Part shown: positions 18,867 to 22,934 of the stretch, piece after piece
Layout of the letters: each line of letters begins with the position of its first letter
Numbering within the stretch: position 1 is the stretch's first letter
Source: Nitrosopumilus sp.
Lineage (GTDB): Archaea; Thermoproteota; Nitrososphaeria; Nitrososphaerales; Nitrosopumilaceae
Direction: 5' to 3'
Length of the DNA stretch: 64,000 nucleotides
NCBI GenBank assembly: GCA_965197525.1
Contig: OZ240211.1
Span: 1,760,001 to 1,824,000, forward strand
Translations under genes and position numbers: made by a program
Notes under the pieces: model-generated
Databases searched by the model: none
The model's input: the letters and a program-made list of their open reading frames with translations, nothing else
Told to the model about the DNA's origin: nothing

Positions 18867-19859
18867 TTGACCGAGCTCATAATCCCTGCTGTAGTCTCAT
18901 GCACTGTTGCATTTGTTCTAGTATTCTTGATGACACCCAAACTAATCACATTTTTAGAGCAAAGAAATTTTACAGTCAAAGATATAAACAAGAAAGGAGA
19001 CGTCATGGTTGCAAGGCCGGGCGGCCTATCTATCATTGCAGGAATAGTCGCATCAGAGATAGCACTGTATGTGTTTTTACCACTAACTGAAATACTGGCA
19101 GTGACTGCTACAACTTTTGGTGCGTTTGTAGTTGGGTATATTGACGATAGACGAGTAATGGGCGGCTGGTTCAAACCCATTGCATTGGCAATTACTGCAT
19201 TTCCAATCATGCTACTTGGTACATATGACACCAATCTTGCGTTTCCGTTATTTGGAACGGTACAAATTCCTGTGTTGTATATTGGATTGATAGTCGCAAT
19301 GATAGTAATTACTGGAAATACGATTAACTCTATTGATGTTCTAAATGGTGTCGCTAGTAGCTTTATGGTAGTTGCAAGTTTTACTTTATCTATCTGTTTA
19401 TTTATTGTACAAAACTACGAAATTGCAATAATCAGTCTACCGCTTGGTTTTGTCTCACTTGCTTTTTACCGGTATCACAAGAACCCCAGTAGAATCTTCC
19501 CTGGTGATTCAGGAGCGCTGGCATTGGGTGCCATGTATGGTGCCATAGCTATTGTAGGTGGTGTGGAAGTTATTGCAGCTGTGGCTTTGCTACCTGCCAT
19601 CATCAACTCTTTTTTATTTTTGGCAAGTGTCAAAAAAATTGTAGAACATCGACAACTAAAAGTAAAACCAGTAGAACATACTGCAGATTTTAAATTAAAG
19701 GCAACAAACCAAAAGACGCGTGTTACTCTACTTAGATTAATCCTTGCAATATCTGGATCATTAACTGAAAGTCAGGCATGTTATGCGATCTTTCGACTGG
19801 CAATATTTTCTGGAATCTTGGCAGTGATTACCGCATTTATGATAGGTGTGCGCATTTGA
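18867..19859 (+). CDS. MraY/AglH-family UDP-GlcNAc:dolichol-phosphate GlcNAc-1-P transferase
   Basis: Multi-TM protein; GYIDD, NSIDVLNG, IFPGDSG motifs. Confidence 0.9.
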   Translation: MTELIIPAVVSCTVAFVLVFLMTPKLITFLEQRNFTVKDINKKGDVMVARPGGLSIIAGIVASEIALYVFLPLTEILAVTATTFGAFVVGYIDDRRVMGGWFKPIALAITAFPIMLLGTYDTNLAFPLFGTVQIPVLYIGLIVAMIVITGNTINSIDVLNGVASSFMVVASFTLSICLFIVQNYEIAIISLPLGFVSLAFYRYHKNPSRIFPGDSGALALGAMYGAIAIVGGVEVIAAVALLPAIINSFLFLASVKKIVEHRQLKVKPVEHTADFKLKATNQKTRVTLLRLILAISGSLTESQACYAIFRLAIFSGILAVITAFMIGVRI

Positions 19860-20092
19860 AGGCTCGTATCTATCTATTTCTCTTTGCAATGTGGATTCTG
19901 ATACTTTTAGGTGGTGGTATTGCAGTCATGATTCTTGGTCCTATATCATTTTCTGGATTCGGATCTGATTCTGTTGATTTGTATGTTACATCAGTTATCA
20001 AAGCAGTCATAGCTATAGTTCTAGTTATAATCTGGATCTTGATTTTATCGAAACTAAAGAACTGGATCTTTAGAAGAGAGATTGGACACTAA
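19856..20092 (+). CDS. Small two-TM membrane protein
   Basis: Probable TTG start at 19856 overlapping the upstream stop (MKARIYLFLFAMWILILLGGG...); in frame with the listed ORF 19778..20092. Confidence 0.7.
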   Translation: MKARIYLFLFAMWILILLGGGIAVMILGPISFSGFGSDSVDLYVTSVIKAVIAIVLVIIWILILSKLKNWIFRREIGH

Positions 20093-20160
20093 CTGCCATA
20101 CATGAATATCTGTTTCTTATCGTAGTCTTCCCTACTGATCTCTGTGCTATCGTCTGCAAC

Positions 20161-21610
20161 GGTTCTGTAACATCTTCGAGTGGTTCTATTACCATTTAAT
20201 CTCAACCCTGTTTCACCTGCGGGCAAAGAATACCTCGATCACTTGACTTTGACATATCGACTATTCGGATTACCGGTGTGCTAGGTTCCGTCATCGCCGG
20301 CTCAAAAGTGCCAGACTGCGCTTCATCTATGTCACCTCTACTACCCCTAAACCTAGGGGGCAGCTTGCGTGATATGTTCATGGCAGCGATGATATCCCTG
20401 TCCATAAACAAACCGCAATTATTACACGACAATTTACGATGTTGTTGCATGTCCTCTTGGAGTCTCTTTCCGCATTGCGGACACTGCGTGCTCGTGTTTC
20501 TTGGGTCTACAAATTTGACTGGTAGCCCGACCCATTGGGCTTTGTATTCTATTTGGCGTTGTAATTCAAAGAATTGCCAGCCGTTCAATCTACGTCTGTA
20601 CTTGTTACCTTGACCGTTTCCTTTCTTGTAGAGTTTCCTGATTCCTTTTAGGTTTTCTAAAACGATCACGGCTTTGTTCTTGACTGCGTTGTCTACTATA
20701 TCCTTTGAGATTCTGTGTATGTACTGCTTTGTACGGTTTTGTATTCTTCTCTGTTTTTGTTTCCAGAATTGACTTTTTTTTCTGCGATCATTTCTGCAGA
20801 AACCGGATCTGGCGTGTATTGTATTCTCTTTGATTGACAGTAACTTGTTTGTCTTGTAGACTGTCACCTCTTCCTCGTTCCCACACGTGACGTTTCTGAG
20901 GTTTCTGTCTATTCCTAATTTCTTGGTGCACTCTATCTCTTTTACTTCCTTGGAAATACAAAGACTGATGTTCAAGGCAGTCAATGAAAACGAACGCACT
21001 GCCAAGGCGGGATCAGACAGTATTTTTTGGGTGTGTGAGTTTAACAGGATGTTTATGGGGTTTCTGTTTTTGTATGGGATTGTAAGTAGTGTACCGTTGT
21101 GTTTTATGCCGTAACAGTTTGTCATAAAGGGATTTTTGACTTTTGGGTCTCTTACTCTGACACCACGTTTTACTGACTGTTTTCTGTTTGCCAATACTCC
21201 AGCAGCCCGTGATATTGCATTGAGTTTGTATGAAGATAGGATGTCATAGTCTATTAGTTCATGATAACACAACATAGACAACTGCTTCATATTGTGAGTG
21301 TCTTCCTTTAACCCTATCTTGATACACCGGTTAACCATATCCGTGAATACGCTCATCATATCCATCAGGTCAGAGTTTGGTGTGTATTTTTGTGCTATTG
21401 ACTTTGTTGCCTTCAACAGCTATCCTATGATTTAGAAGTAATTAATTCTAGTGGCTGTCTGACAGTATGCACTCAGGTCTGGTGTCTGCGTAGGTGCAAA
21501 AAACGTAGCATCCTGTAAAATCACATCTAGAAACGAATGAGATCTGAGTGCTTACGTCTGACGATTGAGACTTAATATCTTGTTTTACCACTCGAAGATG
21601 TTATAGAACC
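20161..21610 (-). mobile_element. 1,450-bp TIR-bounded element carrying tnpB only
   Basis: TIRs 20161-20184 GGTTCTGTAACATCTTCGAGTGGT and 21587-21610 ACCACTCGAAGATGTTATAGAACC (23/24 match); flanking 8-bp direct repeat TCTGCAAC (20153-20160) / TCTACAAC (21611-21618). Confidence 0.85.
20202..21416 (-). CDS. tnpB: RNA-guided endonuclease TnpB
   Basis: RuvC-I LGIDRNLRN, RuvC-II IVLENLKGI, zinc finger CPQC...CNNC, RuvC-III DRDIIAAMNI; catalytic D/E/D intact. Confidence 0.93.
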   Translation of the reverse strand: MKATKSIAQKYTPNSDLMDMMSVFTDMVNRCIKIGLKEDTHNMKQLSMLCYHELIDYDILSSYKLNAISRAAGVLANRKQSVKRGVRVRDPKVKNPFMTNCYGIKHNGTLLTIPYKNRNPINILLNSHTQKILSDPALAVRSFSLTALNISLCISKEVKEIECTKKLGIDRNLRNVTCGNEEEVTVYKTNKLLSIKENTIHARSGFCRNDRRKKSQFWKQKQRRIQNRTKQYIHRISKDIVDNAVKNKAVIVLENLKGIRKLYKKGNGQGNKYRRRLNGWQFFELQRQIEYKAQWVGLPVKFVDPRNTSTQCPQCGKRLQEDMQQHRKLSCNNCGLFMDRDIIAAMNISRKLPPRFRGSRGDIDEAQSGTFEPAMTEPSTPVIRIVDMSKSSDRGILCPQVKQG

Positions 21611-21690
21611 TCTACAACTAAGAGATCCCGCATCTTTGCATTCTCTCTAATCCTTGTTCTATCAAACATCAAACTAATGACTCTCATCAC

Positions 21691-21960
21691 TTACAAGTGC
21701 CACGGTTTCCCGCTTTTGACTATCTTTTCAGGCAGCTTTGCTTTATTATTTTTTAAAAATTCCATCTCTTGCCTCTTGTCTCGTAGCTCGTCTGGTAGCA
21801 TGATTGGGATCTCTTCAATAATTGGATAAAATCTGGAACACTTTGTACAAAACAATGAACCCGTTGATATCGTATCCTTGTTCTCATTTATGGCAAATAG
21901 TTCTAATGGATGATTTTTGTCAATCGGGCATGCCAAGATATCAATCATTGTTTTGTTCAT
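21691..21960 (-). CDS. Trm112-family protein
   Basis: DILACPIDK...LFCTKCSRFYPIIEEIPIML. Confidence 0.9.
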   Translation of the reverse strand: MNKTMIDILACPIDKNHPLELFAINENKDTISTGSLFCTKCSRFYPIIEEIPIMLPDELRDKRQEMEFLKNNKAKLPEKIVKSGKPWHL

Positions 21961-22934
21961 TTCAGACTCAGATAAATTGGACTTCCTTTCTGACTAGATA
22001 AAAGTGCAGCTTCGGCAATTTTTATGACGTTTAGCGCTTCTTGTGGTTTTACTATACCATCATGCTCTTTTCTCTGTTCTTTCTCTTTTATTGCATCAAG
22101 AAAATTCTGTATCTGTGATAGTAGCGATTCTTGCTGTTTGGCACCGTCATCATCCTCTGTTACCTCTATTGTATAATCACTATCTTTGCCTTTTTTTTCT
22201 ACAGTTATTTTTTGACTGATAAGATCAGATGATATTACTGCATCAGTGCACACTGCCCTCAACTTGCTAGTTTTTTTTGGCGCAATCCAGTTTGATGATA
22301 TCACTGCGATTCTGTCATCTTTGTATCCCAACATGATGCTTGACAGATCTTCACTTGTGTGTTTTATCTTGCCAGTCCTTGCAAATACCACGTATGGCAT
22401 ATCCCCAAAGAGCCAATTTGCAGTATCAATGTCCTGGCCTGATGTATCATGGATGATTCTTGCATCTTTTATGTGCAAAGGCGCCTTCTCTTCTCGATGA
22501 AATTCTAACATGACTAGACTGCCAAATCCCTCTTCTGCGATAATCTTTTTTACAGTGTTTACTGCAGGGTTGAACCGTTCAATATACCCGCATGTTAAAA
22601 TCACCTTGTTTTTTTCTGCTAGTTTGACTAGTCTTTGGCCTTGGTTTGGTTGATATGTCATTGGCTTTTCTACAAAGACATGTTTTCTTGCATAGAGCAA
22701 CTCTTCGACAACGTCCGCATGCGTTGTTGTGGAAGTTACTACAAATGCAGCGTCAAACTCCTCTGATCTTTGCAATTCTTCTAATGAATTGTAATGATTT
22801 ACAGAATATCTTTCTCCACACTCTTTGCTTTTTTGAGAATCAATATCACAAACAGCGCTTAAAACACCCAATTGTGACAAAATTCTTGCATGATTTTCCC
22901 CACATTGCCCAACTCCAATTTGCACTATATTCAT
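21957..22934 (-). CDS. Gfo/Idh/MocA family oxidoreductase
   Basis: QIGVGQCG Rossmann motif, HVFVEKPM, ERFNPAV. Confidence 0.9.
   Translation of the reverse strand: MNIVQIGVGQCGENHARILSQLGVLSAVCDIDSQKSKECGERYSVNHYNSLEELQRSEEFDAAFVVTSTTTHADVVEELLYARKHVFVEKPMTYQPNQGQRLVKLAEKNKVILTCGYIERFNPAVNTVKKIIAEEGFGSLVMLEFHREEKAPLHIKDARIIHDTSGQDIDTANWLFGDMPYVVFARTGKIKHTSEDLSSIMLGYKDDRIAVISSNWIAPKKTSKLRAVCTDAVISSDLISQKITVEKKGKDSDYTIEVTEDDDGAKQQESLLSQIQNFLDAIKEKEQRKEHDGIVKPQEALNVIKIAEAALLSSQKGSPIYLSLK

Follow-up and report, generated by a model that had tools for sequence, protein, structure and literature searches.

A 1,450-bp unit carrying an intact tnpB gene lies between terminal inverted repeats and an 8-bp target-site duplication in the genome of a Nitrosopumilus species (assembly GCA_965197525.1, contig OZ240211.1). 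The unit occupies positions 20161-21610 of the window, that is, of the whole 64,000-nt stretch analyzed in this work (1,760,001 to 1,824,000 of the contig), and tnpB, encoded on the minus strand, is its sole long open reading frame (ORF). It belongs to a family of mobile relatives in the same genome, and at all 28 scored insertions of this family, the bases W-T-R (W, A or T; R, A or G) directly precede the duplication on the tnpB 5' side. We consider it probable that the unit is a non-autonomous IS6-like transposon which is mobilized in trans and whose cargo is the TnpB nuclease together with the scaffold of its guide RNA (omegaRNA). The guide would be supplied by the flanking DNA, and the success of each copy after insertion would depend on a target-adjacent motif (TAM) recognized by the nuclease.

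The tnpB unit, its family, and a probable transposase partner

The two arms of the terminal inverted repeat are 24 nt long and match at 23 of 24 positions (96% complementary). Beyond these arms, the pattern does not occur elsewhere in the 64-kb window, and none is expected in shuffled sequences. Both ends start with GGTTCTGTAACA, and the same start is found in transposase-bearing elements. The arms are bordered by TCTGCAAC and TCTACAAC, an 8-bp duplication matching at 7/8 positions; a match of at least 7/8 at a fixed place has a computed chance probability of about 4e-4. An earlier note on this DNA had described the unit, its inverted ends, its duplication, and its intact tnpB, and both the coordinates and the strings were confirmed, as was the gap of 17 bp between the tnpB stop codon (20202-20204) and the repeat arm.

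The encoded protein scores 136.5 bits against NCBIfam guided_TnpB (cut-off 100) and 78 bits against Pfam PF07282 (Cas12f1-like_TNB; cut-off 26.3). Catalytic residues and CxxC pairs were read from the translation aligned to solved TnpB and Cas12f chains. The RuvC residues D170 (GIDRN), E254 (VLENL), and D339/D341 (MDRDIIAAMNI) are intact, and the zinc-finger CxxC pairs stand at 312/315 and 331/334. The TTG start is common to most tnpB subfamilies, with ATG or GTG in two. Values of dN/dS between the window tnpB and seven other subfamilies (0.11-0.17) indicate that the gene is under purifying selection.

The host genome is complete, forming a single contig of 2.21 Mb. It contains at least 40 DNA matches (77-86% identity) to the tnpB part, about 35 full-length tnpB hits plus fragments, and 51 matches to the conserved 3' RNA core. 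The family comprises about 50 tnpB or guide-RNA modules, and the window unit is a divergent member of it. Full-length copies located between GGTTCTGT-type inverted repeats number 29, and all of them have ORFs of 373-441 aa. Perfect 8-bp duplications were found in 20 of these, each at a different site, and duplications of 7/8 in two more; a search for such copies at different sites had been named as a check in the earlier note. The window copy represents a lone, older lineage and stands furthest apart in the family: the copy closest to it shares 74% identity across the full element and about 86% within the ORF, and one solo end of its repeat subtype is present at genome position 512900. Identical, very recent copies, which could help to tell a bias at insertion from subsequent selection, were not found in the genome, the closest pairs being at most 99.5% identical.

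The family also includes mini-elements of 208-497 bp, which keep both ends and only the guide-RNA module (from about tnpB residue 280/307 to the end of the gene). They are deletion derivatives of the tnpB element rather than empty shells and would act as guide-only elements, with TnpB supplied in trans. Those having duplications also follow TTA. Separately, an 851-bp element (genome 883991-884841) has perfect 26-nt GGTTCTGT ends, a perfect duplication, and TTA on one side; it contains neither tnpB nor an RNA-core match, only one 96-aa ORF of unknown kind.

Among 151 genomes of the taxonomic family, a tnpB of this family is present in 13 genomes from seven genera, and a second Nitrosopumilus species holds at least 14 copies. 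On contig OZ245003.1 of that species, two tnpB elements lie about 126 kb apart in opposite orientation, with swapped 8-bp duplications (TAGAAACT / TTATGTTA). This arrangement is the trace expected of an inversion in which two copies recombined, and such recombination probably explains at least some of the copies without a duplication. Among the copies of the window's own genome, no flank-exchange signature of inversion or deletion was found. More distant TnpBs (37-47% identity) from other orders and classes, in a Bathyarchaeota metagenome-assembled genome (MAG; VBBR01000062.1) and in Nitrososphaerales MAGs, share the ...AACAGAACC terminus and the conserved RNA blocks. The association between these ends and this clade of TnpB therefore seems to be ancient and to extend widely through the phylum.

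The usual transposase partners of TnpB are absent: searches of the complete genome for Y1 TnpA (PF01797) and for serine recombinase (PF00239) gave no matches, and control genomes do give matches to each. Seven transposase loci in the genome score above the cut-off of PF13610 (IS6-type DDE). The partner transposases reach 42-53 bits against this profile (cut-off 27), are about 380 aa long, and have an N-terminal zinc-binding extension. Their best model is NCBIfam transpos_IS6 (NF033587), matched over the full length at 103-121 bits; because this falls under the cut-off of that model, we term these transposases IS6-like.

The earlier note had proposed that an autonomous DDE element might share the ends, and elements encoding an IS6-type DDE transposase with such ends were found. 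One is a 1,970-bp insertion sequence (IS) that has a perfect duplication and whose repeat is identical to that of one tnpB subfamily over its outer 18 nt. Transposase elements with the same ends also include a second copy of this IS, and a 3.19-kb element (genome 699962-703151) has perfect 26-nt GGTTCTGT ends, no matching duplication, and a cargo consisting of an IS6-like transposase (383 aa, with a SWIM zinc finger), a DNA methylase (PF01555), and an HNH endonuclease. Another coordinate recorded for an IS6-like transposase of this genome is 746963-748096. An IS6-like transposase was found in 64 of the 151 genomes, covering 20 genera, and none of 30 transposase loci contains tnpB. On the strength of the common ends, the duplications, and the lack of the usual partners, we consider it most likely that an IS6-like transposase encoded elsewhere in the genome moves the window unit in trans.

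The predicted guide-RNA module and the motif beside the duplication

To describe the RNA part of the element, the last 200 nt of 39 elements were aligned (the window copy, 12 full-length elements, six mini-elements, and 20 copies from eight other genomes). The alignment contains the blocks TAGGTTT, GAAGCG, TAATCC, AGTCGAT, and AAGT, which are conserved between genera, and a terminal ACAGAACC. RNAalifold predicted a hairpin and a long-range helix, with compensatory changes in 11 of the 14 consensus pairs. An additional hairpin, specific to this genome, is paired in 89 of 95 cells and includes CG/TA and GC/AT swaps; shifted controls gave 17-42%. All covarying helices fall within the C-terminal coding region of tnpB. 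Synonymous divergence is about 2-7 times lower in the last ~100 codons than in the first 300, and synonymous conservation rises from about residue 285-300, the same place at which the mini-elements are cut. These observations support a structured guide-RNA scaffold overlapping the last ~100 codons of the gene. No credible Rfam family was detected on the element.

The scaffold most likely extends across the 3' inverted repeat. The sequence that follows the conserved AAGT varies, and its initial portion pairs, in most copies, with the inner half of the 3' inverted repeat of the same copy. When this post-scaffold segment was combined with inverted repeats, the cognate mean was -12.8 kcal/mol, compared with -8.6 for non-cognate combinations.

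A one-sided motif emerged when elements were oriented by tnpB or by the RNA core, those with a duplication of at least 7/8 were scored, and the three bases directly before the 5'-side duplication were read. In this genome, W-T-R occupies that position in 28/28 insertions (TTA 11, TTG 10, ATA 4, ATG 3), including mini-elements without tnpB. At the mirrored position on the 3' side, it occurs in three of 28, and its genome-wide frequency is 0.088. A T-rich TAM ahead of the duplication had been predicted for the window copy alone, and it is at exactly this position that the motif recurs across the family. In other genomes, 16 of 19 insertions conform strictly and T-R alone is present in 18 of 19; this set includes the second Nitrosopumilus species, a case with a 9-bp duplication in another family, and the Bathyarchaeota MAG (43% protein identity). 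Transposase-bearing elements with duplications have W-T-R on 1/24 sides, and on 0/4 in this genome.

The one-sided motif fits a TAM, with a guide composed of the duplication followed by the 3' flank. In the window copy, the TTA before the duplication is taken as the putative TAM because W-T-R holds this position across the family. Both corresponding strings had been read correctly in the earlier note: the guide is the reverse complement of 20141-20160, and CTCTTA is that of 21619-21624. The site of the predicted guide itself is preceded by ACC, not W-T-R, and no copy's guide has a second perfect match in the genome (for the window copy, a 16-nt guide was used). The features of the unit are listed in Table 1.

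Table 1. Annotated features of the window unit (window coordinates) and positions of mini-elements (genome coordinates)
Feature	Position	Strand	Sequence	Remarks
Target-site duplication, tnpB 5' side	21611..21618		TCTACAAC on +, GTTGTAGA on tnpB strand	7/8 match with the other copy
Terminal inverted repeat, tnpB 5' end	21587..21610		GGTTCTATAACATCTTCGAGTGGT (read inward)	
5' leader, 170 nt	21417..21586	-		about 115 nt longer than in other subfamilies
tnpB, 404 aa, TTG start	20202..21416	-		profile matches, intact RuvC residues, two CxxC pairs
Predicted omegaRNA module	20161..20550	-		5' limit approximate; last ~100 tnpB codons, variable linker, and 3' inverted repeat
Terminal inverted repeat, tnpB 3' end	20161..20184		GGTTCTGTAACATCTTCGAGTGGT	predicted last segment of the omegaRNA scaffold
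Predicted guide	20141..20160	-	GTTGCAGACGATAGCACAGA	deduced from geometry; first 8 nt are the 3'-side duplication copy (20153-20160)
Predicted TAM	21619..21621	-	TTA (tnpB strand)	directly 5' of the duplication; W-T-R position across the family
Mini-elements	genome 143852-144348, 803351-803738, 870887-871264, 1385894-1386101, others			

Several further details of the unit were recorded. A second GGTTCTATTAC motif lies just inside the 3' repeat arm (20181-20192), and weaker subterminal similarity between 20161-20240 and 21531-21610 (ATTTAATCTCAA / ATTAAGTCTCAA) stretches the inverted ends to about 46 nt. The long leader holds a 16-nt inverted repeat (88%; 21465-21480 / 21540-21555). Leaders of other subfamilies measure about 40-75 nt and have a TATA-like box about 28 nt ahead of the TTG start. 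In about 35 congeners, the homologues of the window genes at 19778-20092 and 21691-21960 are separated by an unalignable spacer of about 370-470 bp, and in this genome the same two genes are separated by about 130 bp plus the element.

Explanations for the one-sided motif

The account that we favor, with moderate confidence, treats the inverted ends and the 8-bp duplication as those of an IS6-like DDE transposon whose cargo would be the TnpB nuclease gene and the omegaRNA scaffold. The guide would be the sequence adjoining the element, that is, the 8-bp duplication and the 3' flank. In an empty allele, the guide-matching sequence would come immediately after the 5' flank, whose last bases here are TTA, the predicted TAM. 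In a filled allele, it would instead follow the end of the element (ACC), and at the 5' junction the match to the guide would span 8 nt only; for these two reasons, only empty alleles would be cut. Such cutting could lead to homing or drive of the element into empty alleles, or to the loss of genomes with empty alleles. Insertions with a TAM in the right place and orientation would then spread, and others would stay private and rare. Since the transposase family shows no such motif and IS6-type elements are described as non-excising, TAM-dependent success after insertion appears to be the best explanation of the pattern.

The earlier note had assigned TnpB the role of a retention nuclease acting after excision. 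This part of its proposal fits poorly, since IS6-type transposition is described as replicative and non-excising, generating 8-bp direct target repeats (PMC7986276), and an element benefits from restorative homing only if it excises. A better fit would be homing or drive against empty alleles.

A number of observations weigh against this account. The terminal stem of the window copy is no better than that of non-cognate controls (-9.5 vs. -9.7) and its linker is long. Single-sequence folding is no more stable than that of shuffled sequences (z = 0.1). Data over 19700-22100 comprised one sponge metatranscriptome and three runs of unrecorded type, as contigs only, none of which spans the element; the RNA run, which contains a small part of the window, bears the label of a sponge metagenome. 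Contigs of the RNA library cover 20186-20671 at 19-170x, compared with about 2x on the flanks; this excess at the tnpB 3' part matches the copy-number excess in the DNA-like runs, and the coverage thus says nothing on transcription or RNA ends. The partner transposases score just under the NCBIfam IS6 cut-off (103-121 vs. 125 bits), and the transposase-bearing control elements are diverse and mostly from other genomes. The two copies of the window duplication differ at guide position 5, so the window guide may mismatch the ancestral site. An empty allele was not recovered for the window copy: congeners are only 70-75% identical and their spacer is unalignable, exact look-ups of both flanking proteins returned no match, and a reconstructed empty-site pattern had no match in metagenome contigs. 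Finally, homing would need DNA exchange or several chromosome copies.

Among the other explanations, the strongest, although unlikely in our judgment, is that the motif is set at the moment of insertion. TnpB with its RNA would recognize the TAM and position and orient the IS6-like DDE transpososome, forming a minimal, CRISPR-free forerunner or analogue of CRISPR-associated transposons (CAST). The strictness of the motif (28/28), its exact adjacency to the duplication, and its single orientation are what such steering would produce, the more so as the transposase family alone shows no motif, and the motif at mini-elements without tnpB could reflect TnpB acting in trans. The same pattern would, however, be yielded by homing selection. 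Duplications and flanks of different copies show no similarity to each other, which excludes placement directed by the guide. Neither a fusion nor a neighborhood of tnpB and transposase genes was found (0/30 transposase loci hold tnpB). We know of no precedent for the recruitment of transposition by a TAM only.

Less probable still is an asymmetric target preference of the IS6-like transposase itself, with TnpB uninvolved. Target preferences are common among transposases, and the pairing of each tnpB subfamily with a particular partner is uncertain, but the two ends of the elements are nearly identical and offer little on which a transposase could orient. Together with the occurrence of W-T-R on 1/24 sides of transposase-bearing elements with duplications (0/4 in this genome), this makes a transposase preference the disfavored reading. 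In addition, the motif tracks the orientation of the omegaRNA module, even in mini-elements of 208-497 bp, and persists across TnpB lineages of 40-50% identity with different repeats.

Domestication of tnpB as a regulator or as an addiction or defence module, with an adjoining flank that is not a guide, has a small probability. TnpB has repeatedly been domesticated (PMC10705468), and the window copy could be viewed in this light, as it stands alone as a lineage, its leader is long, and its terminal stem is weak. Against this, the catalytic D/E/D residues and the zinc finger are intact, the family consists of multiple mobile copies that have duplications at many sites, and the one-sided motif beside the duplication would be left unexplained.

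The idea that an ordinary IS200/IS605-type (IS1341-like) tnpB landed in a pre-existing inverted-repeat mini-element, with repeats unrelated to tnpB, can be set aside as very improbable: solo tnpB elements are usually of this type (PMC10691335), but the same arrangement with a fixed tnpB orientation recurs in every subfamily and in many other genomes, the genome has no Y1 transposase, the mini-elements are tnpB deletion derivatives, and separate IS605-type ends would have no space in the commonest subfamily, where the stop codon is situated at the repeat's inner edge. The last point agrees with the earlier remark that little space exists for an independent IS200/IS605 end. A MITE (miniature inverted-repeat transposable element) later hit by an IS605-type insertion and tnpB copies with unshared ends, which the earlier note had regarded as fatal to its reading, were both looked at, and neither overturned it.

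If the motif is a TAM, the family would provide natural evidence that nuclease-driven homing or drive, and not transposase preference, decides which insertions persist; on the alternative meaning, the nuclease would help to choose the insertion site. Both readings can be tested directly on this family, which has a compact TnpB from an archaeon, a scaffold that is defined, and guide/target pairs provided by nature at about 50 sites.

Relation to known systems

TnpBs located within inverted-repeat transposons have been described as branches DDE-1 to DDE-6 (PMC10691335, Altae-Tran et al. 2023). There, the tnpB 3' end in DDE-linked elements lies at most 250 bp from the transposon end, and solo TnpBs with the same ends are presumed to be mobilized in trans. 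A scaffold reaching the transposon end has also been published. The window unit shares with these branches a TnpB in an inverted-repeat transposon, a 3' end near the transposon end, and the presumed mobility in trans. DDE-linked TnpBs with inverted ends and trans-mobilized solo TnpBs are thus already known. The text available names IS630 and does not name IS6, and it holds no statement on an 8-bp duplication starting the guide or on a one-sided TAM beside the duplication without transposase preference. According to a review from 2026, the DDE partners of TnpB include ISL2, IS630, and IS1031, and a whole-word literature search for IS6 and TnpB returned unrelated co-mentions only. As far as checked, three features are new: an IS6-like carrier, the predicted role of the duplication as the initial 8 nt of the guide, and the strict one-sided motif in the absence of a transposase motif.

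With the IS6 elements (IS26/IS257), the window unit shares ends starting with GGTTCTG, 8-bp direct repeats, and mini-element derivatives; its partner transposases match PF13610, and the NCBIfam IS6 model is their best model, at scores just under its cut-off. Typical members of IS6 are about 800 bp long, encode a transposase of 213-254 aa, and almost never carry passengers; a review of the family mentions one passenger gene only and does not mention TnpB (PMC7986276). In contrast, the window unit lacks a transposase and carries tnpB, and the partner transposases are longer (about 380 aa), with an N-terminal zinc-binding extension.

The earlier note had seen in the unit a prokaryotic parallel to Fanzors. 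The comparison holds in that a TnpB resides in a transposon with terminal inverted repeats, but framing it as the first of its kind overlooks the published DDE-linked and trans-mobilized solo TnpBs (PMC10691335). Fanzors in eukaryotic DDE transposons share with it a TnpB-family RNA-guided nuclease, a carrier that makes target-site duplications, and, on the geometry predicted here, the duplication as part of the TAM/guide arrangement (PMC13565253). They differ in being eukaryotic or viral and in having a rearranged catalytic glutamate, whereas the window TnpB has the usual prokaryotic RuvC layout and an archaeal host.

By sequence, the closest solved relatives of the window TnpB are Cas12f proteins (type V-F). 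The protospacer-adjacent motifs of Cas12f, such as TTTR and NTTR, resemble the inferred W-T-R. Unlike Cas12f, the window system has no CRISPR array, and its guide would be fixed by the insertion site.

A further comparison is with the IS200/IS605 elements (ISDra2, IS608, and the solo-tnpB IS1341 group). They share with the window unit a typical-clade TnpB (DRD motif), as well as the arrangement predicted here, with an omegaRNA lying over the tnpB 3' end, and its geometry, namely a guide from the flank, a TAM at the 5' junction, and cutting of only the empty site. IS200/IS605 elements have no inverted repeats, make no duplication, and use a Y1 HUH transposase and subterminal hairpins. The window unit has inverted repeats, an 8-bp duplication, and a DDE partner, and its genome encodes no Y1 transposase, so it falls outside IS200/IS605. 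At the nuclease step, it most likely works like these elements. In IS200/IS605, the TAM is the target motif of the transposase itself, and excision permits restorative homing. The accepted role of TnpB is the restoration of excising transposons, with a TAM equal to the target motif of their own Y1 or serine transposase. The carrier described here is of a kind that makes duplications, has no such target motif, and is described as non-excising, and yet nearly all its surviving insertions adjoin a motif of the kind that the nuclease would require. The pairing of the segment after AAGT with the inverted repeat agrees with the published modular "guide adapter hairpin", which encompasses the transposon end. 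The system would also illustrate how the end of a foreign transposon can be taken over by an omegaRNA to form its final stem.

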